Positions 13,305-37,929 are shown, counted from the stretch's first letter. The stretch is DNA of 64,000 nucleotides from Succinivibrionaceae bacterium UBA3769 (GCA_002372325.1 DFFT01000009.1:2334-66333); one strand, 5' to 3'. Program-made: numbers and translations. The notes: generated from the letters alone by a model not told the origin.

Positions 13305-13328
13305 AAAAAACCGGGCTCAGGCACCCGG
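13305..13328 (-). terminator. Intrinsic terminator ending the sulfur/encapsulin operon
   Basis: Minus strand CCGGGT-GCCTGA-GCCCGG-TTTTTT. Confidence 0.75.
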
Positions 13329-13373
13329 CAAAATCGTCTTCTTCAGCGCGGCCGGGTCAGCCCAGGCGTCCCT

Positions 13374-13625
13374 TTAATCTCCGACCTTCTGAATAAAAAG
13401 CTCGAAGGTGCCATCGCCGTTTTCCCGGAAAGCCAGAATTTTATGGCCCTCCTCCTTCACGCTTCTGGGAACATTCTCGGCGGGTTCGCCGCTGTTAAGC
13501 CGCACCTCCAGAATCTGTCCGTCATCAAGCTCATCCAGAGCCACCTTGGTTTTTACAAAGGTAATGGGGCAGTTTACATCGGTGATGTCAATTTTGTCAT
13601 CCGCGGTAATGTTTGCATCAGTCAT
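13374..13625 (-). CDS. TusA/SirA-family sulfurtransferase
   Basis: IDITDVNCPITFVKTK (CPxP-like persulfide Cys) and GEPAENVPRS; start overlaps the upstream stop. Confidence 0.88.
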   Translation of the reverse strand: MTDANITADDKIDITDVNCPITFVKTKVALDELDDGQILEVRLNSGEPAENVPRSVKEEGHKILAFRENGDGTFELFIQKVGD

Positions 13626-14067
13626 GGTTTTTACTCTCCTCAAGAATAACAAGATCTTCCTTTCTTACGGTTCTGCTTCCCTGGGCCCCTTCAATATGGA
13701 ATCCGTTCAGCACCGGATGATCCTGCTCCGCCAGGGAAAGGATGAGATAGCTGGCCCGGGGATCATTGGCCAGTCTGATATCCTCCTCTGAAGGCCGGGA
13801 GGGACTTGCGGGATGGGAATGCCAGTTCCCCAAAGGGGCAAGTCCGGCTGCTCTCATGTCCTTAATGGCCGCAAGCTGCTCCCGGGGGTCAATGGAAAAA
13901 TGTTCCTCCGCATGATCCGTATTGGTCAGGAGATACACCTTTCTGATCTCCCGGACACCATCCGGACTATCAATGCCGGCCAGAAGCCCGCAGGCCTCCC
14001 GGGGACTTTCCGCGAGAGCATGCCGGTAAATCCTGTCAAAGTCGGCCCTAAGCATGGTTATCTTCAT
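13618..14067 (-). CDS. JAB/MPN+ (M67) metallopeptidase, HcyD/Mec+-like
   Basis: EACG...WHSHPASPSRPSEED JAMM motif (E-x(n)-HxH-x7-SxxD). Confidence 0.92.
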   Translation of the reverse strand: MKITMLRADFDRIYRHALAESPREACGLLAGIDSPDGVREIRKVYLLTNTDHAEEHFSIDPREQLAAIKDMRAAGLAPLGNWHSHPASPSRPSEEDIRLANDPRASYLILSLAEQDHPVLNGFHIEGAQGSRTVRKEDLVILEESKNHD

Positions 14068-14080
14068 ACGCCACCCGAAA

Positions 14081-14893
14081 TCAATGCTGCTTTAATTCGC
14101 AGACAGCCTGCTCATAATCATGAAGCTCGGTAATCACCGGATTCGCGGAGCAGACAGCGCAGCCGGCACCCCGGGACGGCAGCCTGATCTTATGAAACTC
14201 CATGGTGAGCGCGTCATAGGTCAGGAGATAACCGGTAAGAAGCTCCCCTACCCCGGTAATATACTTAATGGCCTCCATGGCCTGAAGGGATCCGATAACC
14301 CCGCCCATGGCCCCGATAACCCCCGCCTGCCGGCAGGTAGGCACCGCATCCTTGGGAGGCGGCTCCTTGAAGATGCAGCGATAGCAAGGGCTCTGTCCCG
14401 GGATCACCGTGGTGAGCTGCCCCTTGAATCTGATAATGCCGGCATGGCTGAAGGGCTTTTTGGCCATGACGCAGGCATCGTTTATCAGGAACTTGGCCGG
14501 AAAATTGTCCGTGCCGTCAATGACGAAGTCATAGTCCTTGATGAGATCCAGAATATTGGAGCTGTTCACAAAGGTGTAATAGGTATTAACCTTAACGTCC
14601 GGATTTATGGCCCTCATAGTCTCAGCCGCAGATTCTGCCTTCTTTTTGCCCACATCGGCCGTGGTATGAATTACCTGCCGCTGCAGATTGGAGAGATCCA
14701 CCGTATCAGCGTCAGCAATGCCGATAGTGCCCACGCCGGCCGCTGCAAGATAGAGAGCGGCAGGAGAGCCTAAACCCCCGGCGCCGATAATCAGCACCTT
14801 CGCTCCCAGAAGCTTCTTCTGGCCCTTGGCGCCGATCTCCCTGAGAATAATGTGCCGGGAATAACGCTCCAGCTGTTCATTTGTAAAGGCCAT
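14081..14893 (-). CDS. ThiF/MoeB E1-like adenylyltransferase (HcyF-like)
   Basis: RYSRHI, GAGGLGS, DTVDLSNLQRQ, DGTDNF, and CYRC/CAVC zinc sites. Confidence 0.93.
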   Translation of the reverse strand: MAFTNEQLERYSRHIILREIGAKGQKKLLGAKVLIIGAGGLGSPAALYLAAAGVGTIGIADADTVDLSNLQRQVIHTTADVGKKKAESAAETMRAINPDVKVNTYYTFVNSSNILDLIKDYDFVIDGTDNFPAKFLINDACVMAKKPFSHAGIIRFKGQLTTVIPGQSPCYRCIFKEPPPKDAVPTCRQAGVIGAMGGVIGSLQAMEAIKYITGVGELLTGYLLTYDALTMEFHKIRLPSRGAGCAVCSANPVITELHDYEQAVCELKQH

Positions 14894-15099
14894 TACTGTC
14901 CGCCTCCCATGAAATACAGAAATTCCACCTCATCCCCTTCATTAAGCACATGAGAGTCAAAGGTATCAGACTTGATAAACTCGCCGTTTACCGACACGGT
15001 CACATACTGCGGGGTTTCCACATTTTCAATTTTAATGAGTTCTGCCACGGTAGTTCCCGCAGCCACTTCCTTTCTTTTTCCGGCAACAGTTATTATCAT
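14893..15099 (-). CDS. ThiS-family sulfur carrier with masked C-terminus (GGG-Q), HcyS-like
   Basis: 68 aa with a beta-grasp-type pattern, ending GDEVEFLYFMGGGQ. Confidence 0.92.
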   Translation of the reverse strand: MIITVAGKRKEVAAGTTVAELIKIENVETPQYVTVSVNGEFIKSDTFDSHVLNEGDEVEFLYFMGGGQ

Positions 15100-15149
15100 T
15101 TGCGTTTTTCCTTACATACAAATCACTGACATCAAAAGTAACAATAAAG

Positions 15150-16109
15150 CTAAATCACATAGCACCACTCATCCCCGGGCTTTACCTCCTCCTTCCGACG
15201 GCGGCTGTCCTGAGAGCGGTATTCCATTTCAGGATTCTTTACTGTAACCCGGGTATTGGCCGGCACCGAGGAGGTAATGAAGGTATTCCCGCCGATAATG
15301 GAGCTCTCGCCGATTACCGTTTCCCCGCCCAGAATGGATGCGCCGGCATAAATGGTCACATTGTCGCCGATGGTGGGATGCCTCTTTTTTCCCGAAAGCT
15401 TCTGCCCGCCCCGGGTGGAAATAGCTCCCAGGGTAACCCCCTGATAGATCTTCACATTCTGGCCGATTATCGCTGTTTCCCCGATAACAATACCAGTGCC
15501 GTGATCAATAAAAAAGCTTCTCCCGATAACAGCTCCCGGATGAATATCAATACCGGTTTCGGCATGCGCGTACTCCGTCATGAGCCGGGGCAGCACCGGA
15601 ACCCTCAGAAGATAAAGCTCATGAGCCAGGCGGTATACGGTGCTGGCCATAAGTCCGGGATAGGCCAGAATAATCTCCTCCAGGCACCCGGCCGCCGGAT
15701 CCCCGTCATAGGCGGCCAGAAGATCCGTTTCCGCCAGACGGCGTATGGCGGGAAGGCGTCTCATAAATTCCCGGGTAATGCGGTAAGCTTCCCGGGCCCG
15801 CTCCTCCCCGGTCATAACGCCCCGAAGCCGGCAAAAATCCAAAGCCTGCGCCACCTGCTTGTTAAGATGGTAAAAAACGTCCTCCAGAATTACGGCAAAG
15901 CCATGCTCCGGATTGTAAATCTTGAAGGAGCGATCCCTGAAATAGCCGGGATAAACAATGCGGAAAAGGTTATCGATGATTTCCCTTACCTCTGCTTTGT
16001 CCGGCTTATGAAAAAAATCGATATCGTCAATATTCTTGGTGCCGTCGATATCGGCAATGATCCCCTGCACCAGCTTCCGGATCTCATCCACGTTGTATTC
16101 GGTCTTCAT
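15150..16109 (-). CDS. Serine O-acetyltransferase (EpsC/SrpH-type CysE)
   Basis: GDPAA, GIDIHPGA, FIDHGTG, YQGVTLGA and KRHPTIG hexapeptide-repeat motifs; C-terminal Ile. Confidence 0.93.
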   Translation of the reverse strand: MKTEYNVDEIRKLVQGIIADIDGTKNIDDIDFFHKPDKAEVREIIDNLFRIVYPGYFRDRSFKIYNPEHGFAVILEDVFYHLNKQVAQALDFCRLRGVMTGEERAREAYRITREFMRRLPAIRRLAETDLLAAYDGDPAAGCLEEIILAYPGLMASTVYRLAHELYLLRVPVLPRLMTEYAHAETGIDIHPGAVIGRSFFIDHGTGIVIGETAIIGQNVKIYQGVTLGAISTRGGQKLSGKKRHPTIGDNVTIYAGASILGGETVIGESSIIGGNTFITSSVPANTRVTVKNPEMEYRSQDSRRRKEEVKPGDEWCYVI

Positions 16110-16166
16110 GTCATCTTACCTGAAAGCCCCTGAAAACCCCGGACGGCATGCCGTCCGGAGCCTCTG

Positions 16167-17765
16167 TCAGGCGAAAGACCTCAGCGCTCTGACCAGAGCA
16201 TCAATATCCTCCGGAGAGTTATAGATGCCCAGTGTCGGTCTCACCGCGCTCTCATAGCCGAATCTCCTGAGCACCGGCTGGGCGCAGTGATGTCCGGTAC
16301 GCACGGCAATGCCGAAGCTGTCCAGTCTCCGCCCCACCTCGTCATCGGAATAGCCATTAAGCTTGAAGGCCAGAGCAGAAGCCTTGTCCCGGGCCGTGCC
16401 TACCAGAGTAAGTCCCGGCACCGTGCGGAGCTCCTTAAGAGCATACTGCAGGAGATCATGCTCCCAGCGGTGCACGCAGGGCATTCCGATGGACGACAGA
16501 TAGGAAAGCGCGGCTCCCAGCCCTACCGCATCGGCAATGCTGCCGGTGCCGGCCTCAAACTTATTGGGCACGTCATTGTAGAGCGTCCGTTCAAAGGTAA
16601 CATCGGCGATCATGTTGCCGCCTCCGTGATAGGGCTCGGCGCTTCTTAAAAGCTCCTTCTTCCCGTAAACCACCCCGATGCCGGTAGGACCGTAGATCTT
16701 ATGTCCAGAGAACACAAAGAAATCCGCATCCAAAGCCGAGACATTAACCGGGATATGAGCCACGGACTGCGCTCCGTCTATCAGGATTCTCACCCCGTGC
16801 CGATGCGCTCCGGCAATAAGCTCAGCCACCGGAGTAACAGTGCCCAGCACGTTGGATACATGGGTTACTGCCACAAACTTTGTCCGGCTGGTAAAGAGCT
16901 TCTCGTACTCCGACATAATAAGCTGACCGGTTTCATCACAGGGGATAACCCGGAGCACCGCACCGGTTTTCTGAGCGATAAGCTGCCACGGAACAATGTT
17001 GGCGTGATGCTCCAGAATGGAAACAATGATCTCGTCTCCGGGCTTCAAAGTCGGTTTTACATAGGCATTGGCCACCAGGTTTATGGCCTCGGTGGTGCCC
17101 CGCACAAACACAATTTCGCTGGAGGAGCCTGCCCCGATAAAATCCCGTACAATGTCCCGGGCGTTTTCATAAGCATCCGTGGATCTGGCTGCCAGAGTAT
17201 GAGCTCCGCGGTGCACATTGGAGTTCTCATGCTGGTAATAATAGGAGATCCGGTCTATTACCTGCTGCGGTCTCTGAGTGGTAGCGCCGTTATCCAGCCA
17301 TACCAGACTATTTCCGTTTACCTTTTCCCCCAGAATCGGAAAATCGCCGCGGATCTCTGCCAGGGTCTTGCTGCCGATGCGAATGGAGTCATTGCTGCCC
17401 CGGGGCGTGACGACGCTGGGAGCCGCTGTCTGCTCCGGAACCTTCCCTGATGCCGCATCGCTGGCAGACAGCACCACGGGAGCGTAGCCGGGGGCAAGCT
17501 TCTCGGTCTCTGTTCCTGAAGGCGCTGCAGCAAAGGGATGCTCCCAGTCAAAGGACTTTCCTGCAGGGATACCGTACCCGACGGCGGGAACCTCGGGCAC
17601 TGCTGCCGGAGCCTCTGCCGGCGCGGCCGGAACTGTCCCGGAGGGAACCGCCGCCTCCCCGATTAAATCAGGGAAGAGCTGATTCGCCAGGGCCTCCAGC
17701 TCCGCCGCGGCAGGAACTCCGTACAGAGCCTCCGGGGAACCTGCGGCATTAATCGTTGTAGTCAT
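16167..17765 (-). CDS. SufS-type cysteine desulfurase with N-terminal disordered encapsulin cargo-loading domain
   Basis: LDNGATTQ, SGHKIYGPTG (PLP Lys), RTGHHCA (catalytic Cys); ~130-aa Pro/Ala-rich N-terminal extension containing LEALANQLF; ATG overlaps the end of the encapsulin gene. Confidence 0.93.
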   Translation of the reverse strand: MTTTINAAGSPEALYGVPAAAELEALANQLFPDLIGEAAVPSGTVPAAPAEAPAAVPEVPAVGYGIPAGKSFDWEHPFAAAPSGTETEKLAPGYAPVVLSASDAASGKVPEQTAAPSVVTPRGSNDSIRIGSKTLAEIRGDFPILGEKVNGNSLVWLDNGATTQRPQQVIDRISYYYQHENSNVHRGAHTLAARSTDAYENARDIVRDFIGAGSSSEIVFVRGTTEAINLVANAYVKPTLKPGDEIIVSILEHHANIVPWQLIAQKTGAVLRVIPCDETGQLIMSEYEKLFTSRTKFVAVTHVSNVLGTVTPVAELIAGAHRHGVRILIDGAQSVAHIPVNVSALDADFFVFSGHKIYGPTGIGVVYGKKELLRSAEPYHGGGNMIADVTFERTLYNDVPNKFEAGTGSIADAVGLGAALSYLSSIGMPCVHRWEHDLLQYALKELRTVPGLTLVGTARDKASALAFKLNGYSDDEVGRRLDSFGIAVRTGHHCAQPVLRRFGYESAVRPTLGIYNSPEDIDALVRALRSFA

Positions 17766-18708
17766 GGTATTCGCCAACCTCTACATCCTCAAGAACAGCC
17801 AGAGCATCATCAGCAAGAACGGCAGCGGAGCAGTAAAGAGACAGCAGATAGGAAGCAACGCCCTTGTTATCAATGCCGCGGAACCGTACCGAAAGGCCTC
17901 TGGAATGCTCGTTCTTGAGACCGGCCTGGAAGAGACCGATAACGCCTCTCCTGGCCTCGCCGGTTCTGACCAAAAGTATATTGGTCTTGCCGCTCTGAGA
18001 TACCGGATTCTTAAGACCGTCCACCAGAAGCTTGTCTGTGGGGATCAGGGGAATGCCGCGCCAGGTTACAAAGGTGCCGCCGGCCTGATTGATAACCACC
18101 GGAGGAACACCGCGCTTGGTGCATTCTCTTTCAAATGCGGCAATAGCTCTCGGGTGAGCCAGGAAAAACGACGGTTCCTTCCACACCTTGGTAATGAGCT
18201 CATCCAGGTCATCAGGGGTGGGAGCTCCGTTTCTGGTCTGAATTCTCTGAGAATCAGCCACATTCTTAAGGAGGCCGTAGTCATCATTGTTTATAAGCTG
18301 GCTCTCCTGACGCTCTCTCAGCGAATCAACAGCAAGGGAAAGCTGCTCCTGCACCTGATCATAGGGCGAACTGTACACATCCTCAATGGCGGTATTGACA
18401 TTGATAATGGTGGAAATGGAGTTAAGCCGGTACTCCCGAGGCTGAGTCTCATACTCTACATAGCCCTCAGGAATAGTGTCAGACTTCTTGGTCTGGCTGC
18501 ACAGCACATCCAGAGGAGTATCGCCCTCAACTACGCGGTTCACCCGGAAAATCCCGGTTTCCAGCCCCTTGAACTCCAGAAATCTGGTGAGCCACTTGGG
18601 AGTAAGGGAGCCGAACTGCGGTCTGGTCTTGGTAACGTTGGCCAAATTGTAGGCCGCCTGAGCACCCAGGGCATTAATCCCGTTGCTGTTTACATTTTCT
18701 GCTGACAT
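17749..18708 (-). CDS. Family 2A encapsulin shell protein (SrpI / major-membrane-protein-I-like)
   Basis: 319 aa with TPKWLTRFL, GIFRVN, PREYRL, LINNDDYGLL, PTPDDLDEL, FLAHPRAIAAF, TWRGIPL and GLSVRFRGI motifs recalled for SrpI-type shells; directly upstream of a desulfurase with an extended N-terminus. Confidence 0.93.
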   Translation of the reverse strand: MSAENVNSNGINALGAQAAYNLANVTKTRPQFGSLTPKWLTRFLEFKGLETGIFRVNRVVEGDTPLDVLCSQTKKSDTIPEGYVEYETQPREYRLNSISTIINVNTAIEDVYSSPYDQVQEQLSLAVDSLRERQESQLINNDDYGLLKNVADSQRIQTRNGAPTPDDLDELITKVWKEPSFFLAHPRAIAAFERECTKRGVPPVVINQAGGTFVTWRGIPLIPTDKLLVDGLKNPVSQSGKTNILLVRTGEARRGVIGLFQAGLKNEHSRGLSVRFRGIDNKGVASYLLSLYCSAAVLADDALAVLEDVEVGEYHDYND

Positions 18709-18771
18709 TTCATTCTCCTAAAAAAATCAGAAAATTGCTTCTCATAACTCATTCCCTCCAAATCTGCCGGC

Positions 18772-20229
18772 CTAGATCCAGCCGCCTTCATTGGACAGAA
18801 TAATATCCTTCATAGCATCCAGTCCTCCTCTGAGACTGTATGCCGATCCCGCATAGCCGGCCTCCCGCAGGGTCTTCACCGCCAGGATGCTCCGCTTGCC
18901 CTCTTTGCAGATAAACACGGTATCGTGCTCCGGATTAAGCTCGCGCTGTCTCCGGGCCAGCTGACCTATCGGAATGACTATAGCCCCCGAGAAGCGCAGA
19001 ATTGAGCGCTCGTGCGGCTCTCTGACATCAACAATGGTCAGAGGCTCTCCGTTCTCGATGCGCCGGGCCAGATCCTCCGGAGCGATAGTGGCCACCGGCT
19101 CCTCCGCAGGATCCTCTCTGAGGCCGCAGAGCTCTTCATAGTCGTAGTTCTTAGGTTCTCTGATAGCGGGAGCGCTGCCGCAAACCTCACAGTCATCCCG
19201 GTGTCTTACCTCCAGCACCTCAGATCTGAGTCCCATGGTATCCACCCGGAGGAGTTTCCCGGAAAGATGCTCGCCAATGCCTATAATGAGCTTCAGCGCT
19301 TCTGTGGCCTGAATGCTCCCGATAATGCCGGAAAGCGGGCTTATGGTGCCGCCCTCGGCGCAGGTGGGTACCAGCCCCGGCTCCGGCGGCTCCGGAAAGA
19401 GACACCTCAGGCACGGGCCGCCCTGATAGTTAAAAATGCTGACCCAGCCTTCATATTGGTAAACAGCGCCGTATACCAGAGGGATCCCGCAAATGACGCA
19501 GGCATCGTTAAGGATGTAGCGCGCCTGATAGTTGTCGGTGCAGTCAATCACGAGATCAAAACCGTCGATGACTGACAGAACATTGCCGGCGTCAACCTTT
19601 ATATTCTCGGCAATTACCTCTGTTCTGCGGTTAATGGCCCTGACCTTATCACGGGCCGAAGCCGCCTTGGGACGCCGAATATCCCGAAAACCATGGATCA
19701 CCTGACTCTGCAGGTTGGGAACAGCCACCGTGTCGAAATCCACAATCTTGAGAGTGCCCACCCCGGCTGCGGCCAGGTACTGCAGCACCGGCCCGCCCAG
19801 GGCACCGGCTCCGATAACCGCTACTCGGGCAGCCTTTATTTTTTTCTGCCCCTTGACGCCGATCTCCCGGAGCAGAAGATGCCGGCTGAATTGATCTACC
19901 TCAGCATTGTCCAGAGATACCTGTTTTCTCCGAACTTCGGAAATTATCCCCTCCTCCGGAGCGCCGCCGGCAATAAGGGGAAGGAGGAGGAGCGAGCTTC
20001 CTGAAGGCACCGGGGTGTCATGCATGTTCTTGTCTGTCCAGTCGTTTTTCCCGGCAAAAATTCTGATAAAGCTCCGGAGTTCGCCCTTTTCATCCCAAAG
20101 TCCCTGTCTGGCCTCGGGAAAACGATCACTCAGCTCCTTTAAAGCTTCATTTACTGTATTGCCCTGCGCCTCCTCGGTGGTACTTCGACCGAAAAACGAA
20201 CGCAGTGTCGCTGAAATAAAAACCTTCAC
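18772..20229 (-). CDS. Ubl(MoaD/CysO)-MoeB(E1)-rhodanese fusion protein (MoeZ-like)
   Basis: aa 1-89 are MoaD-like and end LPLIAGG; then FSRHL, GAGALG, DCTDN, CLRC/CEVC; C-terminal rhodanese with DVRE and CKEGKRS. Confidence 0.9.
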   Translation of the reverse strand: MKVFISATLRSFFGRSTTEEAQGNTVNEALKELSDRFPEARQGLWDEKGELRSFIRIFAGKNDWTDKNMHDTPVPSGSSLLLLPLIAGGAPEEGIISEVRRKQVSLDNAEVDQFSRHLLLREIGVKGQKKIKAARVAVIGAGALGGPVLQYLAAAGVGTLKIVDFDTVAVPNLQSQVIHGFRDIRRPKAASARDKVRAINRRTEVIAENIKVDAGNVLSVIDGFDLVIDCTDNYQARYILNDACVICGIPLVYGAVYQYEGWVSIFNYQGGPCLRCLFPEPPEPGLVPTCAEGGTISPLSGIIGSIQATEALKLIIGIGEHLSGKLLRVDTMGLRSEVLEVRHRDDCEVCGSAPAIREPKNYDYEELCGLREDPAEEPVATIAPEDLARRIENGEPLTIVDVREPHERSILRFSGAIVIPIGQLARRQRELNPEHDTVFICKEGKRSILAVKTLREAGYAGSAYSLRGGLDAMKDIILSNEGGWI

Positions 20230-20705
20230 AGTCCTGTCTCCTTAAATAATTCCAGCTTCAGTTCAGAAGGCCTGTCTGCTACTGAAGGCTTCATCCATAA
20301 TCTGATATCAGAAATATCCTGTAATTCATGACCATATACGGAAATCACCGCATATACGCATCCGGGCACCATGCCCTCCATGTCCCGTCTGGACAGCGCG
20401 GCAGCTGCTCCGGGATGGGAATGATAAAAACCAATCACTGTAAAGCCCTGGCTGCCGCATTCCCGCTCAAGCTCCAGAAGCTCCCGGGGATCCGTCCGGT
20501 AGCTTCGCTGCCTGCTGTCCCAGGCGCCGGGCTTTCCGGACGCCAGGTTTCTCAGGGGCCGAAAGCCGGCAATAACAACGGAACCATCCTCTCCGGGCAC
20601 TCCCCAAAGCGCCCCGCAGCATTCCTCCGGATAGGCTGTACCGGCATGCTGCGTGATTCCGGCCCAGACGCTGTCCGCCATCAAAGCTCTTACTGCGGCT
20701 GTCAT
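20226..20705 (-). CDS. Second JAB/MPN+ (M67) metallopeptidase, Mec+-like
   Basis: YPEECCG...GFYHSHPGAAAALSRRD JAMM motif; stop overlaps the start of the Ubl-E1 fusion. Confidence 0.88.
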   Translation of the reverse strand: MTAAVRALMADSVWAGITQHAGTAYPEECCGALWGVPGEDGSVVIAGFRPLRNLASGKPGAWDSRQRSYRTDPRELLELERECGSQGFTVIGFYHSHPGAAAALSRRDMEGMVPGCVYAVISVYGHELQDISDIRLWMKPSVADRPSELKLELFKETGL

Positions 20706-20757
20706 TTCTGCTAAGGCCCTTTTTTGTTAATCACTTTTTCTTTAAGCCCTGTTTCTG

Positions 20758-22008
20758 TTAATCCCTTGCGTCTCTGCTGACCGCCACCGCCTGAAGAAAA
20801 TCCTGAATCAGATCCTCCGGATCCTCAATCCCTACGCTGATGCGGATGGTGTCCTCAAAGACTCCGGCCTTTTCCGCCTCGGCTTTACTGGTTCTGACAT
20901 AGAGCGTGGAGGCCGGATGGATAACCAGAGTCCTGAGATCTCCCAGGTTGCTGGCGATCCGGGCATACTTCAGGGAATTTATTACCCTGAAGGCTCTCTC
21001 TTTGCTTCCGGCTCTCAGGGTCAGAATGCCGCCCCCCAGGCCCCCGAGCTCCCGTTCCGCAAATTCATGGTACGGATGATCAGGAAGAGTAAGGTAGTTC
21101 ACCGTAATATCGGGCTCCTCGGCGAGACGCCGGGCCAGAGCATCGGCAGTCCGGCAAATCCTGTCCATTCTGAGACCCAGGGTATCTGCTCCGATATATG
21201 TCAGATAGGCATTCATGGGACTCTGGCAGGTGCCGAGATTGGCAAAAATATCTGCTCTCAGTCTGGCCAGAAAGGCCAGCTTCCCATACTGTCTGAAGCC
21301 GGAAAGCGCCTGATGCTGCTCAAAATTCCAGCTGAAGGAGCCCCCGGACACAATAATGCCGCCCACGGAGTTTCCGCCGCCGTTGATATACTTGGAGGTG
21401 GAATGGATGACCGCATCCGCTCCCAGACTAAGAGGCCTTGCCAGATACGGCGTTGCCGTGGTGGAATCCACAAAAAGCGGAAGCCCCAGTTCATGAGCTG
21501 CTTTTGCCAGGGCCGGAACATCCAGCACCGCCAGAGACGGATTGCTGATAAGCTCCCCGAAAACCAGTCTGGTTTTGTCGGTCGCGAGGCTCCTGACCGC
21601 ATCAGCATCCAGCCTGTCGGCATACACGGTATGAATGCCAAGCTTTTCCAGATCATGAAAGAGATCAATTGTCCCGCCGTACAGTCCGGCCCCGGCAATA
21701 ATCTCATCGCCGCTTTCGCACACTGCCAGGATAGCGGTGACTATAGCCGCCATCCCGCTCCCCGTGGCGACGGCGCCAAAACCGCCCTCCAGCTCATTAA
21801 TCCTGTTTTCAAAAGCGGAAACTGTGGGATTGCCGATTCTGGTATAGGCAAAACCGGGACTCTTATGAGCAAAAACCCTTTCCAGATCCTCCATGCTTTC
21901 ATACTGAAAGGCTGTTACCTGAGAAATCGGAGGGAGTATGGCCCCCTGGGGATAACTCCGGGAGTTTTTTCCATGGAGAAGCAACGTAGTAAAACCGCAA
22001 TCTTTCAT
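20758..22008 (-). CDS. PLP-dependent O-acetylhomoserine/O-acetylserine sulfhydrylase (MetY/MetZ-like)
   Basis: YTRIGNPT, SGMAAI, VDSTTATP, HSTSKY (PLP Lys), SNLGD, IRISVGIED; start uncertain (22008 or 22080). Confidence 0.88.
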   Translation of the reverse strand: MKDCGFTTLLLHGKNSRSYPQGAILPPISQVTAFQYESMEDLERVFAHKSPGFAYTRIGNPTVSAFENRINELEGGFGAVATGSGMAAIVTAILAVCESGDEIIAGAGLYGGTIDLFHDLEKLGIHTVYADRLDADAVRSLATDKTRLVFGELISNPSLAVLDVPALAKAAHELGLPLFVDSTTATPYLARPLSLGADAVIHSTSKYINGGGNSVGGIIVSGGSFSWNFEQHQALSGFRQYGKLAFLARLRADIFANLGTCQSPMNAYLTYIGADTLGLRMDRICRTADALARRLAEEPDITVNYLTLPDHPYHEFAERELGGLGGGILTLRAGSKERAFRVINSLKYARIASNLGDLRTLVIHPASTLYVRTSKAEAEKAGVFEDTIRISVGIEDPEDLIQDFLQAVAVSRDARD

Positions 22009-22108
22009 AAAACCGCACTCACAACTCTCATATCGCCCTTCAGAAGACTCATATTTCCTGCCGGCCGCTCTCTCCGGCATTTTACAGCCCCGATCCCGAC
22101 CTTGCTCA

Positions 22109-22142
22109 AATATAAACATAGTCACCTAGTATGTCAATAGGT
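22109..22142 (-). promoter_or_regulatory. Sigma70 promoter of the sulfur operon with an overlapping palindromic operator
   Basis: Minus strand TTGACA-17 bp-TATATT; ACCTA-N9-TAGGT (22124-22142) straddles the -35. Confidence 0.75.
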
Positions 22143-22297
22143 TTTTAAGATCTGAGAATGCAAGTAATGGAAATCACTGAAATACAGGAGCCCTCTCGGA
22201 CTCCTGCTGAGGCAGGGACTACCGGAAAACCCATGAAATAATAACGATATGATGTGAAAGATGAGAGCAGATACAAGGAAGCTACGGGGGCGAGAAT

Positions 22298-28652: not shown

Positions 28653-29207
28653 TTACCGGCTTTCCCTGGCCCATTTTTTGACTTCGGCAGTGTTCACGCT
28701 GCTGGAAAAGCCCTTCCCCGGCTTCCAGGCACCGGCTCCGGCCTTTGCTGCCAAATGCTCGGAGCTCTGACCATGGCCGCTGCTTCCGGAGGTGGAGAAG
28801 GTAATAACGGTCTTGCCGGAAAAGTCATGCTTCTCGGCAAAGGTGTACACAATATTGGGAGCCTCCCCCCACCAGATGGGGTAGCCGATGTAGACGGTGC
28901 CGTACTTATTCCAGTCCGCCACGTCCCCGATGTATTCCGGCTTTATGGACGGATCCTGATGCTCCTTGGAGGAGCGGCTCTCAGGATCCCGGTAATCCAG
29001 ATCCTTCACGGAATACGGAACCGCGGGATTCAGGGCAAAGGTATCCGCCTTGAGCTCTGCGGCAATGGCCTCTGCCGCCACCTCGGTTCTCCCCGTGGCG
29101 GAAAAGTACACCACCAGAGTATCGGTTTCCGCCGCCAGAGCAGTTGATCCGCCGAGGGAAAGACCGGATAACAGGCCGGCAGCAAGAATTTTACGCAGTG
29201 TGTTCAT
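28653..29207 (-). CDS. Exported flavodoxin-like protein
   Basis: Signal peptide followed by VVYFSATGRT, GYPIWWG and FSTSGSS. Confidence 0.85.
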   Translation of the reverse strand: MNTLRKILAAGLLSGLSLGGSTALAAETDTLVVYFSATGRTEVAAEAIAAELKADTFALNPAVPYSVKDLDYRDPESRSSKEHQDPSIKPEYIGDVADWNKYGTVYIGYPIWWGEAPNIVYTFAEKHDFSGKTVITFSTSGSSGHGQSSEHLAAKAGAGAWKPGKGFSSSVNTAEVKKWARESR

Positions 29208-29279
29208 AAATCCTCCGAAAAATTGTCCGAAATCAGGCAGGCAAAATCATCTAGACGAAACCGCCGCATGATTCCGCGC

Positions 29280-29804
29280 TTATGAATCGTAGAAATGCTG
29301 CCCGTCCTCAGTTACGAGGCGTTCAGTCTTGGGATACTCAAATATGGTGCTGTTATCGGCATTTCCTTCCAAATAAGCGGCAAACTCATTGGCATACCAT
29401 TTAGCCATCTCCAGGTTATGCATGCGGCAGTAACCGCAGTTTTCGGGAGCGGTTCCGGGCACCTCCTTCACGTCATTTACGGACTTGAAGGCGCTCAGCA
29501 TGAGTTCATAAAGCTCCCGGGAAGAACGGCTGCCCTTGAGGATGAGATAAAAGCCGGTAAGGCAGCCCATGGGGCCCCAGTAAATAACCTCGTTTTTCCA
29601 GTCCGGATCGTTGCGAAGGTAAGTGGCAATGATATGTTCCAGAGAATGCATGGCCGCCACGTCAATGACAGGCTCCCGGTTCGGTCTTTTAAGCCTGATA
29701 TCATAGGTGGTAACCGAATACTCTCCCAGATGATCGACTCTGCTGGTGAAAATACCAGGCACAATGCGGGTATGGTCTACCGAGAAGCTTTGTATAAGTT
29801 CCAT
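29280..29804 (-). CDS. luxS: S-ribosylhomocysteine lyase
   Basis: SFSVDH, HSLEH, GPMGCLTGFY; start moved to MELIQSF. Confidence 0.93.
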   Translation of the reverse strand: MELIQSFSVDHTRIVPGIFTSRVDHLGEYSVTTYDIRLKRPNREPVIDVAAMHSLEHIIATYLRNDPDWKNEVIYWGPMGCLTGFYLILKGSRSSRELYELMLSAFKSVNDVKEVPGTAPENCGYCRMHNLEMAKWYANEFAAYLEGNADNSTIFEYPKTERLVTEDGQHFYDS

Positions 29805-30090
29805 GTCGTTTCTCCTGACGCTGCAACTGTTATTAACTGATATTAGCCTTGCCATAATCTTATCACAAGAGATCCTTTTGTTCCGGTTTCGGCGGTTTTT
29901 TTCAGTAACATCTGCGCAGAGTTTCGGGTTACAGCTTTCTGCTTGCCGGGGAACCGAACTTTTCCGAAATCAGGCTTTTCCGGCAGGTTCATCATTCCTG
30001 AGTGCAAAAAGAGTTGTCTTCGGCAAAAGGAGTTGTAGTAGCTGCAGGAATTACTGTCTTCCGAAATGAACTTTGTGCACACTTCCTGCG

Positions 30091-30157
30091 TTATTTGGCA
30101 GTTAAGGGGGTAAATTTTGCAAAAAGTTCAAAAGATGCCGCCTTAACCCCAAAATAA
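30091..30157. repeat. Long imperfect inverted repeat upstream of the AAA ATPase gene
   Basis: TTATTTGGCAGTTAAGGGGG versus the reverse complement of the right arm, TTATTTTGGGGTTAAGGCGG. Confidence 0.65.
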
Positions 30158-30215
30158 CTCTGACTCCTAACATATAATTGTCTGACCATACCAGATCTCC
30201 TGACAGGATAAAGCC

Positions 30216-31313
30216 ATGAAACTCTACCGACGGGAAAACTACCTCAGGAAAATGCGGTGATTTTTTCATGATACCGGCATTATCAAGGTGATCACCGGAG
30301 TGCGCCGGTGCGGGAAGTCATGCCTGATGCAGACTATTGCCGAAGAACTACATCTTTCCGGGATTCCGGAAGAAAATATCATCTTCCTGAATCTGGACAA
30401 ACGGGGATACCGCAGCATAAAAACCCCGGAAGCTCTGGATACGCTTATAGCAGCCAAATCTTCCGGAGCCGGCGTTAAGTATCTCTTCATTGACGAGGTG
30501 CAAAACGTTGCCGGGTTTGAAGAGGTCATCAACGGATTCCGGGAAGAGGAAGAGTACTCGATTTTCATCACCGGTTCCGCTTCATGCCTATTGGGCGGTG
30601 AACTGGGCACCAAACTGACCGGACGCTATCTGGAGTTTGAGCTCTTCACCTTAAGCTTTGCGGAGTATCTGGAAATGAAAGCCTTTCTGGGTAAAACGGC
30701 AGAGCCGGATCTCACCAGGGAGTTTGATTCCTACATTTCCGAAGGCGGCTTCCCAAAAGCTCTGGAGTATGAAGGATCTGACAAGGAGAGCTACATACGC
30801 GGCATCATAACGGAAATATTCCAAAAGGATATCCGCAGCCGGGCCAAAATCCGCAATGTGCCGTCATTCGAAACGGCGCAGCGTTACATTATCAGCAATT
30901 TTGGCGTCACCATGAGCCTCACCGGCATTCTGCAGGATCTGAAGAAAAACGGCTGTCCGGTGCGACGGGAGACTCTGAAACGCTATCTCGCAATCCTGGA
31001 GGAGGCTAAAATTATTCACCCCTGCGCTCGCTTCGATCTGAAGTCCCGAAAATCAATAGCCGGAGAACAAAAGTACTATCTTGCTGACCTGGGATTCTAC
31101 TTCGCCATGAATACAGACAAACGCATCAATTACGGACCCGCTCTGGAAAACATCGTTTACGTTTATGCCAGATCAAAGGGCTATAACGTCAGCATCGGAC
31201 GCATTGGGAAACTGGAATGCGATTTTATAATGTCCCGCGGCAATGCTGATTACGCCTATGCGCAGGTGGCCATGACCATTATGAATGACATCCGCACGGA
31301 AGAATCACTGTAA
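30216..31313 (+). pseudogene. AAA ATPase (AAA_14/DUF4143-type) with an in-frame stop and truncated C-terminus
   Basis: MKLYRRENYLRKMR*FFHDTGIIKVITGVRRCGKS with TGA at 30258-30260; FIDEVQN, GGFP, KYYLADLG and LECDF motifs; ends abruptly at RTEESL. Confidence 0.8.
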
Positions 31314-31552
31314 ATGAAGATAAAAATAATGAATGCACTTATCTTATTGAATTAAAGTATGCTGCAAAGACAGATGCCTCGGAATCAAGAATTCAGAGTC
31401 TGATAAAGGAAGCTTCGGATCAGGTTCTTAAATACAAGTCTGCTCTGGAGTTCAGGAACAGACAGGTCAAGGCATATTCCATGGTCTTTGCAGGATCAAA
31501 TTGCGTACACTGCCAGTTGCAGAACCAGCAATCATTCCCGCAACACCTTTGA
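31304..31552 (+). pseudogene. C-terminal remnant of a PD-(D/E)XK nuclease domain of the kind fused to AAA ATPases
   Basis: Start-less frame ITVNEDKNNECTYLIELKY...EASDQVLKY...AYSMVFAG, i.e. ExK plus EA..Q..Y pattern. Confidence 0.6.
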
Positions 31553-31681
31553 TTTCAAGGGCTTTCAGAGCCGGTTCTGTTTTGCCCGTGCCAGTACGAT
31601 CTCAGCGTGTTCCGTGCGGAATCATATTGGAAAGGTAAACCAACCGAGGTACCTCGGAATCCTGTGGCTTTGCCGATCAAA

Positions 31682-32668
31682 TTATTTTTTCAGCCTGTAT
31701 TTCTGATTCCTGCTATTAGGCTTATCAGGGATCGTCATTTCTATAACGCCGTGCCTTAGTGCCGGGTTCAGATAATTCTGTCTGAACGTTGGCCTGTGAG
31801 ATAATCCCAGCCGTTTCATTATTCCCGCAGCGGAAAGGACATCTTTTCCTATAGCCTTTCGCAGCTTATCAATCAAAGGATCTGTTTGTTCCTCCACCCC
31901 ATTTCCGACAACAGCTGTATTTTGCAAAGTATCCAGAATCACCTGCAATAAAAATGCTGCAAAAGCGCTGCTGTCGGCATCGCTGTCCGATTTACCCAGA
32001 GCTTCATAATATTCGTTTTGCCGTGATCTTATAAGCTCTTCTACGGGCAGCCAGTAGAATATCTCATTCCAATGGCCCAGCAGCAGGCTGTGCCACAGCC
32101 TTCCCATGCGCCCGTTTCCATCAGCAAACGGATGAATAAATTCAAACTCATAATGAAAGATGGCGCTTCTTATGAGGGGATGGATTTCAGATGTCTTGTA
32201 CCAAGTGAATAAATCCTGCATCTGACCGGGAACCATATTTGCCGGCGGAGCCATGTGAACAAGATCTTTGCCGTTAAAAACTCCAACCCCGCCGCTTCGG
32301 AATCTGCCATTTTCAGAAATCAGTTCATTCATCATCGCTTTATGAGCCTTTAACAGATCATCAACAGAATAAGGATCTAAGGTCAGCATCATCTCATAAG
32401 CTGTGTAGGCATTTTTAACTTCCCTGATTTCCACAGGATTGCCGAGAATTCTCTTACCCTCAAGAATAGCAGTAACCTGTTCTGACGAGAGAGAATTATG
32501 TTCAATGGCCAATGAGGAATAAATTGTTCTTATACGGTTCTCTTTTCTGAGATGAGGAGTAATGCTGCCTTTGGACAAAATTTTGATCTGCCCTAACTGC
32601 TCACTGATAGCAGCGGTCAAATTAATTATTTTGTCCGTCATGTGAAACGGCGGCTGGTACTTGCTCAC
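31682..32668 (-). CDS. Fic-domain protein with N-terminal autoinhibitory-type helix and C-terminal HTH-like segment
   Basis: HPFADGNGRMGR and SSLAIEHN; GTG start preceded by a GAGGAG ribosome-binding site. Confidence 0.92.
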   Translation of the reverse strand: MSKYQPPFHMTDKIINLTAAISEQLGQIKILSKGSITPHLRKENRIRTIYSSLAIEHNSLSSEQVTAILEGKRILGNPVEIREVKNAYTAYEMMLTLDPYSVDDLLKAHKAMMNELISENGRFRSGGVGVFNGKDLVHMAPPANMVPGQMQDLFTWYKTSEIHPLIRSAIFHYEFEFIHPFADGNGRMGRLWHSLLLGHWNEIFYWLPVEELIRSRQNEYYEALGKSDSDADSSAFAAFLLQVILDTLQNTAVVGNGVEEQTDPLIDKLRKAIGKDVLSAAGIMKRLGLSHRPTFRQNYLNPALRHGVIEMTIPDKPNSRNQKYRLKK

Positions 32669-32844
32669 TTTTTGCTCCTCATACTGAGCCCTCTCCGGTA
32701 TCAGGATATTTAGCGAATGGGCCGTTAACGATTGCGGCATTGATTTCTGATAATATCTCTTCACAGGACAGTTTACCCTGCCATGTAAATTGATTATCCC
32801 TTGTTAATCAATGCTCTTTCCGAAAACGGCCGTCCCCCGTGATA

Positions 32845-35800
32845 TCAGAACCTGCGGTCTTTCTGAGCCTTCTCCTTCTCGGCTTCTTCTGTTGAGAAAG
32901 CGAAGATTTCCTCTATCTGACGGTTGGACAGATCTCCAATCCACTTTTCACCGACATTTATGGCAATATCTGCCAGATCCTTCTTGGATTTGATAATATC
33001 GTTGATCTTCTCCTCAAAGGTATTGGCGCAGATCAGCCGGTAGACCTGAACATTTTCCTTCTGTCCGATGCGGTAAGCCCGGTCGGTTGCCTGATCCTCC
33101 ACAGCCGGATTCCACCACAGATCATAGTGGATTACTGCTGATGCCGCCGTCAGTGTAAGTCCTGTTCCGGCAGCCTTCAAAGACAGAATCATGCATCTTT
33201 CATCGCGGCGATTCTGGAACTTGTCAACCATTGCGGCCCGTTCGGAAGCCGAGAGTCCTCCGTGAATAAACTCGGGACGGAAACCGGTTCTCTCCTCGAT
33301 CCATTTCTGCAGCAGATCTCCCATTACCTTGAACTGGGTGAATATCAGACATTTCTTGTTGTTCTCAAACATGTCGTCCAAAAGATCAAACAGCACCTCC
33401 ATCTTCCCTGAATATCTGGCATCCTGATGCGAATCCTCCTGAGAATAATGAGCCGGAGCATTGCAGATCATTTTGAGACTGCGGATCAGATTGAGCACCA
33501 CCGAACTGCGCTGCAATGAATCAAGCTCCTCCATGACAAGCATGGAATGATTTACCTTCTCCTGATAGAGAGCCACCTGCTCCGGAGTAAGCGTACAGTA
33601 CTTGTCGATCACTATCTTGTCCGGCAAATCGCTGATAATGGACTTGTCAGACTTGAGACGTCTCATGATAAACGGAGCCGTTATCAGCTTGAAGCTCTTC
33701 ACGGCAGCCGGATCCCTGGTACGCTCAATCGGGTTGGCAAATTCGCGTTTGAAGGCCTCCGCAGAACCCAGAAGTCCCGGATTGGCAAAATCCATAATCG
33801 ACCAGTACTCAAGAAGCCTGTTTTCAACCGGGGTGCCGGACATGGCAATCATGGAATCCGCCTTGATGGAACGTACCACCTTGAAAATCTGCGACCGGGT
33901 GTTCTTGATATTCTGAGCCTCGTCAATAACGATAAGACGCAGCTTCAGCTTCTGAAAGAGCTTGTTTTCAGATCGGAGAACGCCGTAGGAAGTCAGCACG
34001 ACATCGGCGGGCTTCGAAAGATCCCGTTCGGTATAGAAGGTATTGACCCTGAGCTCAGGAGCAAACTTGGCAAGCTCCTTGTCCCAGCTTACCAGAAGCG
34101 AAACCGGCACCGCCACCAGAACCTGCTTGTCCCGCAATTCTCCGTCATAGCGCAGCTTTTCTATGGCGGCAATGACCTGAACGGTCTTGCCCAGTCCCAT
34201 ATCGTCGGCCAGAATAGAACCCATCATGGTCCGCAGATTCTTGGTAAGCCAACTATACCCTCTGAGCTGGTATGGTCTGAGCTGCGCCTTAAAGGTGGGA
34301 GGAACCTCAATGCTCTTTTCAGAAAGAATATTCTGAAGGCAGTCCCGAAGCTCCTTTGTAATTGCCACATTGTCTTCGCCGAAACGTCCGGTGAGCGCGG
34401 CGGCCATGAGCCGCTGCTTGCCGGGAGCCTGAGAGCCGCCGGCAAGCTTTTTGGCAATACGGGAAGTAAGAGCGGGGTCGACATAAACGAAAGACTCGCC
34501 GAATCTGACAACCTTACCCTCATGAAGCCGGAGATCCGCAAACTCCTCCGGGGAAATAGAGCGATCCCCCAGAGCAATACTCCAGTCGAAATCCAGAAGA
34601 TCGGTAATCCCGGTGAACCCCGTGCCGTCGTCCCATCTGTCTCTCATGGACACTGTCATGGAAGACTTCGGATAAATGACCGACTTCAGAGCCTTCGGCA
34701 CAATCAGTCTGACGCCAAGGATTTTCATAGCCGGAATGGTAGACTGGATGATAGGAGCCAGATCATCAAGAGCAATAATCCCCACTCCGCCCCGGTTTTC
34801 CAGAAGTTCGGTGAGGGGCGGACATACAGAACTCAGGCGGGCCACTGTTCTCAGACACTCAAAGCGGATTTTCTGATACTCCCGGTTTTCAATAATCTCA
34901 GACAGCGGAATGAAGGTGTCCTCGGGAGTTCCCTGCTGATCCAGACGATTAAAGCCCATGGAAATCTGAATTCCGGCAGTATTGTCAAAAAGGCCCTTTC
35001 TATGGCCTTTTTTGGCTTCCGTCAGGTCTTCCTCATCAGCTTCCGGAGCAGTAACCACCTCCCCTCTGTCAGCCTGATAAACCGGAGATGATTCAAGGTC
35101 GATATCGGCATCCCCGTCGCTTTCGGTTTCGTAAACAGTTCTGGCTTCATTGATCACTTCCGCCAAGGCCGCGGCGGACTGATCCTCGAGAATAATAACC
35201 GGCTGCACCTTGAGATTCTGGAGATAAATCGGAGCAATCCAGGACTCCAGACGCTTCTTGACGCTCTCTCTGGCATGGAAGCCCTCCTCCAGATCCACCA
35301 GTTTGCCCAGGAATATGCTCTGACATTCCAGGGGAAGATCCTCGCTGGCATAATCATCATGGAGCTCGATAAATGCTTTGGTGATATAGCTCCCGAGATA
35401 CATGCTCAGAATCATTTCGCCCAGAACATAGGGGTTCATGTTCTCGGGCCGGCGGGCCACGCTGATCACGGTGTTGTCGATGGTCATAAAGAAACGCCCC
35501 ACCGCCGTTACAATATCCCGCACCTCTTTCGACATCACCGCCGGAATCCAGCGCACGGCAAAGAAATCATCCACCGGCTCATAAATCTGCGGTATCAGAG
35601 CGCCGCTCTTCACCAGCTTGGCGGCCAGAACCCAGGCATTGTACAAAGCCTCGATTTCGACCGGAGCAATTTCCAGAGCCTTCTGATTAATGGCTCCGGA
35701 AAACATTTCATAATAAGCCGCGCCGTCATATTTTTCCTTCCAGACGGCAAACGGATAAACCGAGGCCTCCCTGCCGCTGTTTTCCATGGAATAGGTTTTC

Positions 35801-36675
35801 CAGGAAAAACTCTCGTTAAGCCTGATCCGGCCCCAGGAATCAAAAGTCAGAATCGGTTTTTGGGTATCGTAGGACGGCAGATCCCGATCCTCGTTATCCT
35901 TAAGCTGAGCATCTGCAAGCTTGGCGGCGCGCTGCATGCATTCCTTCATCACGTCCCGGAGATTGGCCTGTATGTAACCTGCAGGAGACGGCTTGAAAAG
36001 TCCCACTATGGAATCGGTAAGCTCCGGAACTTCCTTAAAGGTGGCCTTTCTGAACTCGTCCATGGAGCTTGGCTGAAGTCCGGAATTCCGGGAGGAAATT
36101 ATTTCCGCCCAGGTGGGCATCTCGGATTCCTCTACCTGACCAATATTGACATCGCGCTTGGCAAGCTCGGCCACCAGATCCAGCCCCTTTAATTCAAAAA
36201 TAACAAACGGGTTGGCGTCAATCACCTGACTGAATTTATAGATTACCGCTGCAATATGCTTGCAGGGCACTGCGGTATCCGGACAGGAGCATGATGCCTT
36301 AAGATCGCTCCACTTTTCGGGAAAAATGTTTATCCCCTGCTCCTGAGCCAGAGTGTCAATCTCCGGCGCCAGTTCCCGCGCCGACAGACGCGCCAGAATC
36401 ACCGGGTTTTCGGCAATAGCATCCAGAAGACGCGTCTTTTCCTCCTCGGTGAATTTCGGGAGCCGGATTTTTACAGAATAGAACGGATCATACTGACCTT
36501 CAACCCGGGCCTTGATCATGTTCTGATCCGGATCCAGGTTCGGAGAATTAACCCTTCCTTCATTAGCGTAGGCAAAGCCGCGGGGAATGCGGTTTTCGTA
36601 ATCGATACCGGTAAGGGCATTAAGCCATCTTTCACCCCACCAAGTTGTGCCGTATTCATTTTTTGCAAGCGTCAT
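32845..36675 (-). CDS. SWIM zinc finger - SNF2/SWI2 helicase fusion
   Basis: N-terminal TWWG and CSCPD..PCKH SWIM motif; LADDMGLGKT, DEAQNIKN, SGTPVEN, WWNPAVEDQATDRAYRIGQ. Confidence 0.92.
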   Translation of the reverse strand: MTLAKNEYGTTWWGERWLNALTGIDYENRIPRGFAYANEGRVNSPNLDPDQNMIKARVEGQYDPFYSVKIRLPKFTEEEKTRLLDAIAENPVILARLSARELAPEIDTLAQEQGINIFPEKWSDLKASCSCPDTAVPCKHIAAVIYKFSQVIDANPFVIFELKGLDLVAELAKRDVNIGQVEESEMPTWAEIISSRNSGLQPSSMDEFRKATFKEVPELTDSIVGLFKPSPAGYIQANLRDVMKECMQRAAKLADAQLKDNEDRDLPSYDTQKPILTFDSWGRIRLNESFSWKTYSMENSGREASVYPFAVWKEKYDGAAYYEMFSGAINQKALEIAPVEIEALYNAWVLAAKLVKSGALIPQIYEPVDDFFAVRWIPAVMSKEVRDIVTAVGRFFMTIDNTVISVARRPENMNPYVLGEMILSMYLGSYITKAFIELHDDYASEDLPLECQSIFLGKLVDLEEGFHARESVKKRLESWIAPIYLQNLKVQPVIILEDQSAAALAEVINEARTVYETESDGDADIDLESSPVYQADRGEVVTAPEADEEDLTEAKKGHRKGLFDNTAGIQISMGFNRLDQQGTPEDTFIPLSEIIENREYQKIRFECLRTVARLSSVCPPLTELLENRGGVGIIALDDLAPIIQSTIPAMKILGVRLIVPKALKSVIYPKSSMTVSMRDRWDDGTGFTGITDLLDFDWSIALGDRSISPEEFADLRLHEGKVVRFGESFVYVDPALTSRIAKKLAGGSQAPGKQRLMAAALTGRFGEDNVAITKELRDCLQNILSEKSIEVPPTFKAQLRPYQLRGYSWLTKNLRTMMGSILADDMGLGKTVQVIAAIEKLRYDGELRDKQVLVAVPVSLLVSWDKELAKFAPELRVNTFYTERDLSKPADVVLTSYGVLRSENKLFQKLKLRLIVIDEAQNIKNTRSQIFKVVRSIKADSMIAMSGTPVENRLLEYWSIMDFANPGLLGSAEAFKREFANPIERTRDPAAVKSFKLITAPFIMRRLKSDKSIISDLPDKIVIDKYCTLTPEQVALYQEKVNHSMLVMEELDSLQRSSVVLNLIRSLKMICNAPAHYSQEDSHQDARYSGKMEVLFDLLDDMFENNKKCLIFTQFKVMGDLLQKWIEERTGFRPEFIHGGLSASERAAMVDKFQNRRDERCMILSLKAAGTGLTLTAASAVIHYDLWWNPAVEDQATDRAYRIGQKENVQVYRLICANTFEEKINDIIKSKKDLADIAINVGEKWIGDLSNRQIEEIFAFSTEEAEKEKAQKDRRF

Positions 36676-37006: not shown

Positions 37007-37129
37007 GAGTCTGGTACAAAAAGTGAAAACAGGCCATTTTGCGATAACACGAATAGTTAAAACAAAGGCTTCGCTCCTTTGATTTACTCCTTTAAATTTT
37101 ATTCAAAACCGACTTTTTGCACCGCGCTC
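37007..37129. mobile_element. Putative 123-bp MITE or internally deleted IS remnant
   Basis: Imperfect terminal inverted repeats GAGTCTGGTACAAAAAGTG / GAGCGCGGTGCAAAAAGTC (14 of 19 match); no ORF inside. Confidence 0.45.
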
Positions 37130-37928: not shown

Positions 37929-37929
37929 A

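Follow-up and report, generated by a model that had tools for sequence, protein, structure and literature searches.

The desulfurase encapsulins of family 2A have been described in four operon types consisting only of genes for a rhodanese (R), a serine acetyltransferase (AT), the encapsulin (Enc) and the cysteine desulfurase (CD) (PMC10836720), and supplement 2 of PMC8049743 does not give ThiF, ThiS, JAB or TusA as top encapsulin neighbours. Remobilisation of the sulfur from these shells was stated to be unknown in two 2024 papers, in which a role of the lone rhodanese was guessed (PMC10836720, PMC11284452). Iyer et al. (2006) described operon type 4e, in which a ThiS-ThiF-JAB-TusA-MetY module stands in sulfite-reductase-containing operons, and, in a row of their Table 1, type 4c, which has the layout of the thiocarboxylate cysteine pathway (PMC1779556). 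The window analysed here is a stretch of 64,000 nucleotides from Succinivibrionaceae bacterium UBA3769 (GCA_002372325.1, DFFT01000009.1:2334-66333) containing an operon of ten minus-strand genes (22008 to 13374), in which a family 2A encapsulin and its desulfurase are encoded together with two sets of genes for ubiquitin-like (Ubl) sulfur carriers. With a probability of about one half, we suggest that the operon works as a store-and-release unit: sulfur linked to the shell would charge the carriers as thiocarboxylates, and a MetY-like enzyme would use these to make homocysteine. Directly observed are the gene content, the intact catalytic residues, the conservation, an operator in common with other cysteine and methionine operons and a frequent loss of sulfite reductase from the shell-linked module.

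The ten-gene operon and its relatives

An earlier note on this DNA had named ten co-oriented genes, and all of them are present within the limits it gave, their names being confirmed by Pfam and NCBIfam profile scans of the ten proteins. A small correction concerns the first gene, which most likely starts at ATG 22008, since the alternative GTG 22125 falls within the promoter. The genes had also been called often overlapping; four junctions do overlap (by 4, 29, 1 and 8 bases) and five have gaps of 13-63 bases. As the note had said, genes for sulfite reductase, sulfate activation or a cysteine synthase (CysM or CysK) are absent from the operon itself. It is flanked by pyrG and eno, two genes that are separated by 374 bases in another genome of the same family (G002), so the block is an insertion.

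The shell protein (17749..18708, 319 aa) passes the NF041162 profile (487 bits, cut-off 380), has PF19307 as its sole domain and scores under the cut-off of NF041163 (383 against 400), so it lacks the cyclic-nucleotide (cNMP)-binding insertion and is not of family 2B; its best PDB match is 8T6R (E 2e-116). The adjoining gene codes for a SufS-type cysteine desulfurase (16167..17777). Its N-terminal region, about 135 aa long, is rich in Ala and Pro and contains a conserved motif that resembles the cargo-loading motif of PMC8049743. This protein passes the SufS profile TIGR01979 and comes just under the cut-off of the cargo desulfurase profile NF041166 (769 against 800), its catalytic Cys being kept in 78/79 cases.

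Upstream of the shell gene lies a gene (18772..20229) coding for a 485-aa Ubl-E1-rhodanese fusion with ThiS, ThiF and Rhodanese domains, in which the carrier (residues 1-89) ends in Gly-Gly, and this Gly-Gly, the E1 Cys290 and the rhodanese Cys441 are each kept in 79/79. In an AlphaFold model of the fusion (mean pLDDT 82) all three domains are seen, the Gly-Gly falling within a linker of low confidence, and the top fold match of the model is Uba4. JAB1 (20226..20705), a JAMM metalloprotease of the Prok-JAB family, is the predicted cutter of the fused carrier after Gly-Gly, and its JAMM residues (E, H, H, S, D) are kept in 68-69/69; the protein is only 26-40% identical among relatives, against 83-91% for the shell, yet its metal site is invariant.

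The first gene of the operon (20758..22008) encodes a 416-aa MetY-like O-acetylhomoserine sulfhydrylase (Cys_Met_Meta_PP), probably of the clade found in carrier modules, the pyridoxal phosphate lysine of which (residue 206) is kept in 61/61. Downstream of the desulfurase gene are genes coding for a CysE-like serine O-acetyltransferase (15150..16109; TIGR01172 166, under the cut-off of 211), a 68-aa ThiS/HcyS-like carrier with a GGG-Q end, the Gly-Gly of which is masked by the short tail (14893..15099), a ThiF/HcyF-like E1 adenylyltransferase without rhodanese, assigned by Pfam and NCBIfam (14081..14893), JAB2, an HcyD-like JAMM protease of the Prok-JAB family with the motif kept in 69/69 (13618..14067), and a TusA/SirA sulfurtransferase with Cys19, kept in 60/60 (13374..13625). 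The end of CysE (15150-15170) carries a conserved W-x-Y/F-x-I tail, presumably of the type that binds CysK, for which the operon has no gene. JAB2 and TusA are fused in the relatives L005 (15094-15804) and L009 (12699-13496), both by Pfam, and in L015 (9555-10283), which links carrier trimming with persulfide transfer.

The gene-neighbourhood survey proposed in the earlier note was run as a GTDB genome scan with the shell protein, in which the best 80 of 554 relatives were analysed, many of the loci ending at contig ends, and the linkage proved to be conserved. The hosts are mostly Lachnospiraceae, along with Succinivibrionaceae, Fibrobacter, Treponema, Bacteroides and Oscillospiraceae, and all ten genes occur together in 36 of the 80 loci, from five phyla. 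Counted singly, the Ubl-E1-rhodanese gene is present in 79 loci, the desulfurase in 77, JAB1 in 66, CysE in 64, ThiS in 59, ThiF in 57, JAB2 and the module-type MetY in 55 each and TusA in 47. The gene order is shuffled among loci except for fusion-shell-desulfurase, with the fusion gene directly 5' of the shell gene in 78/80. Within the host family Succinivibrionaceae the shell was found in 12/97 genomes, adjoining the fusion in 12/12, and among 351 sampled genomes of a single family, E1 matches in reading frames of fusion size were confined to genomes with a shell.

The nearest match is a metagenome-assembled genome of Succinimonas (locus L001, genome G001) with 93.8% DNA identity over 21 kb and the same flanks, used here as a stand-in genome, from which the gene content elsewhere in the window's organism is only inferred. 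In the MetY, E1 and ThiF trees (quick or FastTree trees and one careful MetY tree) the window proteins nest among those of Lachnospiraceae, which would fit acquisition of the unit by transfer from Bacillota. A second Succinivibrionaceae lineage (L227, L229-L232) has no JAB1 match beside the fusion, so that JAB2 may serve both carriers, or JAB1 may be too diverged; in this lineage MetY lies directly beside TusA, the usual place of sulfite reductase, and 2/3 genomes are without a PF01077 protein. In genome G036 (L036, L096, L097) the shell operon and the carrier module each occur twice, and sulfite reductase accompanies both copies of the module. A Rhodanese-TusA-DsrE2 triple fusion is encoded beside the operon in 10/80 loci (L022 13705-14781, L030 3104-4285, L057 8442-9620 and seven more), often with its own operator. 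Farther along the window, 28653-39117 is of lower GC content (down to 0.38) and contains, by eye, flavodoxin-, LuxS-, Fic- and SNF2-like and ATPase reading frames, which is probably another insertion.

Operator, promoter and RNA evidence

A palindrome, ACCTA-N9-TAGGT (22124..22142), overlaps the -35 box of a sigma-70-type promoter (22109..22137, minus strand, 11/12 match), the -35 hexamer of which is kept inside the operator consensus, and a terminator-like hairpin, a consensus match only, lies 3' of tusA (13310..13329, minus strand). The palindrome precedes the first operon gene in 47 of the 64 loci with sufficient upstream DNA (16 others were too short), compared to 1/64 for the reversed-pattern control; in the window alone it occurs once with 0.47 expected, which is not above chance. 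A scan for promoter-like sites gave 6, against 8.4 in shuffles, so the promoter call rests on conservation.

In G001 there are three operator matches, preceding the shell operon, metY-cysK and a sulfate-reduction operon, and elsewhere the operator also heads iscS-nifU and Rhd-TusA-DsrE genes and, in two further genomes, genes coding for amino-acid ABC binding proteins, with one of four matches in G004 preceding no evident sulfur gene. Exact matches are lacking in 40 of 40 shell-less module loci and number 1 in 80 distant metagenome loci, so the operator is a trait of this clade and not of all such systems. The same site was noted at window 22124-22142, in L081 (18112 and 16598) and in L211, often with an Rrf2 gene nearby, and apparently works across phyla after transfer.

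The palindrome is likely the site of an Rrf2 (CymR/IscR-like) regulator. CymR is an Rrf2 repressor that senses O-acetylserine through CysK. It is described as cysteine-responsive, with sites resembling those of IscR (PMC3828012). As in the CymR regulon, the palindrome lies over promoters of cysteine and methionine operons, with an Rrf2 gene adjoining the operon in 24/80 loci; unlike in that regulon, the Rrf2 protein scores under both the CymR (NF047409, 69 against 195) and the IscR (72 against 208) cut-offs.

So wide a use of one operator, from metY-cysK and sulfate reduction to iscS-nifU, ABC binding proteins and Rhd-TusA-DsrE, as well as the movement of the unit between phyla, also suits a co-regulated sulfur-starvation island, to which we give a real though minority share of credence. 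The shell would then store or detoxify cysteine sulfur alone, with the carriers charged independently by cytosolic IscS/SufS, by sulfide from a sulfite reductase in trans or from the gut, or by thiosulfate or polysulfide, and the genes would be together through their shared operator and joint movement. Most of the gene order is indeed shuffled, yet the Ubl-E1-rhodanese gene stays attached to the shell gene, which speaks against such an island.

Parts of the stretch are present as assembled contigs in fourteen ruminant-gut RNA runs; contigs of this kind cannot prove a single transcript, and their depth cannot rank genes. Run X2 yielded one 5.8-kb contig over 13057-18845 with a depth of 92, the adjoining upstream contigs being near 5, and in run X6 the cover extends from 13468 to 22151 with none on either flank, which gives a weak hint at expression of the operon and at a step near the shell gene. 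Run X4 shows flat cover including opposite-strand genes and resembles DNA, and runs X7 and X12 contain scattered short pieces only. The step in X2 from about 5 to 92 falls just upstream of the shell gene (18708-18845), where a second promoter or an RNA processing site is possible.

Carrier modules and the sulfur source

The ThiS-ThiF-JAB2-TusA-MetY set is found in shell-less Lachnospiraceae within sulfate-assimilation operons with sulfite reductase and is a Wolinella-type module. The ThiF is 76-83% identical to E1s of sulfite-reductase-linked Lachnospiraceae operons, and in a FastTree of 81 rows the window MetY groups with MetYs of ThiS-ThiF-JAB-sulfite reductase operons (support 99), apart from the canonical paralogues. 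TusA is a standard part of the sulfite-reductase-linked module and is not specific to the shell. A PDB search was tried as a means of telling carrier-dependent from sulfide-using MetYs and did not separate them.

The JAB1-Ubl-E1-rhodanese set derives from type 4c. Among 80 distant metagenome shell loci, 17 contain a gene for a CysM-like enzyme (which scores closer to CysM than to CysK, under both cut-offs), 16 a JAB, 21 an E1-rhodanese, either fused or with a separate masked carrier, 44 CysK and only 2 ThiS-ThiF. Across 163 shell loci the CysM-like enzyme (21) and the module MetY (57) never occur together, as if one acceptor had replaced the other; the exclusion tracks the split of the E1 tree and is close to one event, not many. 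Of the cysteine arm, the Ubl, E1-rhodanese and JAB parts are intact, and the CysM-like enzyme is present in 4/50 genomes, none of them of the window type. The unfused string of CysM-like enzyme, JAB, masked-Gly-Gly carrier, E1-rhodanese, shell and desulfurase (L085 9776-13894; also L127, L161, L168, L170 and L172) is the simplest system for bench work on cysteine recovery.

It was also considered that the E1-rhodanese attaches the fused Ubl to lysines of the shell, the cargo or other proteins, with JAB1 removing it, in the manner of SAMP/Urm1-like modifiers. The top fold match, Uba4, and the missing CysM acceptor in the window type are in keeping with this, and the best NCBIfam matches of the Ubl, the JABs and the E1s do include SAMP1, desampylase and UbaA, all of them under cut-off (SAMP1 42 against 60, desampylase 51 and 72 against 130, UbaA 298 and 325 against 450). 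Every conserved neighbour of the shell loci is, however, a sulfur amino-acid gene, and in relatives the gene for this carrier belongs to a CysM-JAB-Ubl-E1-rhodanese string, the layout of the thiocarboxylate cysteine pathway (PMC1779556, row 4c), so that a modifier is the least probable of the explanations considered. Thiamine synthesis, molybdenum cofactor (Moco) synthesis and a TtuA-type role were rejected as sinks of the carriers: ThiG is present in only 13/43 genomes and MoaE in only 2/43, neither ever in the conserved neighbourhood, and TtuA passes the cut-off in 0/5 genomes.

The absence of sulfite reductase from the operon had been taken to point to the shell as the source of sulfur. For the window's own lineage it tells little, because G001 carries on another contig cysK-sbp-cysTWA-aprAB-cysDN, a sulfite reductase of 294 aa and siroheme genes, without a carrier module. 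This operon (L081 243-17739, G001:C95) is a Clostridia-type sulfate-assimilation operon with AprAB, a small sulfite reductase and siroheme genes in a gammaproteobacterium, and lacks the usual carrier module, as if an ancestral operon had been split in two.

Across relatives the argument fares better. Sulfite reductase adjoins the ThiS-ThiF-JAB module in 28/31 shell-less loci and in only 7/46 shell-linked ones (11 shell-linked and 8 shell-less loci cut near the module were dropped, and one of the shell-less loci belongs to a genome that has a shell at another site). The remaining 39 shell-linked loci have no sulfite reductase beside the module; in 24 of their genomes, including three isolates, no PF01077 protein of any size was found, and the carrier module keeps all its catalytic residues in these 24. 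CysD was absent in 4/4 tested of them, and the completeness control LepA was found in 24/24. In the even sample of 351 genomes, where the PF01077 background is 176/351 and 44 genomes have the module E1, PF01077 is present in 36/37 shell-less module genomes and in 3/7 shell-bearing ones (p 0.001; 3/6 and p 0.006 without the centre genome), the p values ignoring kinship. It speaks against a co-regulated island that the shell-less gut relatives almost always keep PF01077, although free desulfurases would generally be expected in them too. Nor would free sulfide need a carrier, canonical MetY and CysK being present.

Several observations weigh against the store-and-release unit, and two of them, the free desulfurases and the result of the tree-corrected test, also favour the island. 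Canonical sulfide-using MetY and CysK paralogues occur in 5/5 genomes, each of which also has 3-5 other PF00266 (desulfurase-family) genes, so a shell-free sulfur supply is possible; the claim that the shell and its desulfurase feed the carriers has an intact module and few other sinks on its side, and these free desulfurases on the other. The sulfate-reduction operon of G001 is under the same operator as the shell operon. In 15 of the 39 cases where a shell-linked module has no sulfite reductase beside it, the genome encodes a PF01077 protein elsewhere, and 55 of the 163 shell loci, many on short contigs, are without any relay gene. In the PDB search with the window MetY, Wolinella MetY (3RI6) came third, close to sulfide-using MetYs. 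A second control, enolase, was found in only 11/24 of the sulfite-reductase-negative genomes, which counts against their full completeness; this result was discounted, as one isolate genome is also without enolase. Loss of enolase is known in rumen bacteria. On the E1 tree the majority of sulfite reductase losses belong to a single clade (47 rows), with further cases in Fibrobacteraceae and Roseburia. The independent-pairs test on this tree had 5 pairs and was not significant (for local loss, 2 pairs on average agreed and 0 opposed, and for genome loss 1 and 0; none was clearly opposite).

Proposed sulfur flow and comparison with known systems

MetA, which would supply O-acylhomoserine, is present in 5/5 genomes tested. 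By analogy with known families, the store-and-release unit would work as follows. The desulfurase would be packed via its disordered N-terminus and deposit sulfane or elemental sulfur from cysteine. JAB1 would cut the fusion after Gly89, giving a free carrier and a Uba4/MoeZ-like E1-rhodanese, JAB2 would trim ThiS and ThiF would adenylate it, the cleavage and adenylation steps being modelled on MoeZ/CysO (PMC3227635). MetY would combine the ThiS thiocarboxylate with O-acylhomoserine made by the MetA encoded elsewhere, a chemistry modelled on Wolinella MetY (PMC8191291), and CysE would supply cysteine synthases in trans.

More speculatively, rhodanese Cys441 and TusA Cys19 might receive sulfur either from the shell, carried by a small polysulfide or persulfide, or from desulfurase that is left unpacked, and with CysM lost the fused carrier might also serve MetY or pass sulfur to the second relay. 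Reductants, whether proteins or small thiols, are kept out of published desulfurase shells (PMC10836720, Discussion), so direct access of the rhodanese to the shell sulfur is hard to picture, a further point against release by this route. Sulfide from the sulfate-reduction operon in trans would be a likely second input in this lineage.

The flow might also run the other way, with the relays fixing sulfide or sulfane sulfur, when scarce, in homocysteine and in cysteine (the latter made with the help of CysE), and with the shell as a final store that some unrelated route would empty. That CysE and a cysteine synthase (CysK or CysM-like, as counted in the distant loci) widely accompany the shell would fit such a supply of cargo substrate. 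MetY is, however, the only acceptor in the window-type operon, homocysteine is not a desulfurase substrate, and published shells are induced by sulfur starvation (PMC10836720, PMC8049743), when dead-end storage makes little sense, all of which makes reverse flow improbable.

A more specific form of the store-and-release unit, which we put forward as a tentative and rather doubtful proposal, is that the fusion is a dedicated exit port drawing sulfur from the loaded shell into a protein thiocarboxylate, the shell replacing sulfite reductase as the source in gut anaerobes of five phyla. The fusion occupies the place of the lone rhodanese in published operons (PMC10836720). As the rhodanese is here part of one protein with an E1 and a carrier, and the operon also encodes an acceptor enzyme, release would have a defined product, namely a +16 Da thiocarboxylate and labelled homocysteine, so that the open question could be tested with one cloned operon. 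If true, rumen bacteria that lack sulfate reduction would have a means of buffering sulfur and of making methionine, and the carrier would be a case of one cut out of its own activating enzyme.

Each of the modules is already known, and their union is the new part. As the earlier note had supposed, no characterised precedent for the full combination of the shell with two carrier modules was found in the full-text literature searched, which largely leaves out subscription journals and in which supplements may list such operons. The closest systems on the shell side are the family 2A desulfurase encapsulins, namely SrpI/CyD of Synechococcus, the rhodanese-AT-Enc-CD operon of Acinetobacter and the mycobacterial Mmp1/Enc-CD. 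The operon shares with them a shell passing NF041162 followed by a desulfurase with a long disordered N-terminus, as well as a serine acetyltransferase and a rhodanese domain, and shell assembly, cargo packing and sulfur storage are predicted here from these homologues. It differs in its hosts, which are gut anaerobes, in having its rhodanese as the last domain of a Ubl-E1-rhodanese fusion, and in additionally encoding a second carrier, two JAB proteases, TusA and MetY.

The Wolinella HcyS/HcyF/HcyD/Sir/MetY system (type 4e) likewise has a masked ThiS, a rhodanese-less E1, a JAB, a SirA/TusA and an O-acetylhomoserine sulfhydrylase, whereas the operon described here is without sulfite reductase and sulfate uptake or activation genes and possesses a shell and a desulfurase. 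With CysO/MoeZ/Mec/CysM (types 4b and 4c) it has in common a Ubl with a masked Gly-Gly, an E1-rhodanese and a JAB, and in distant relatives the shell gene adjoins the complete string, CysM-like enzyme included; in contrast to that pathway, the carrier is fused to its own E1, and MetY stands where CysM is missing.

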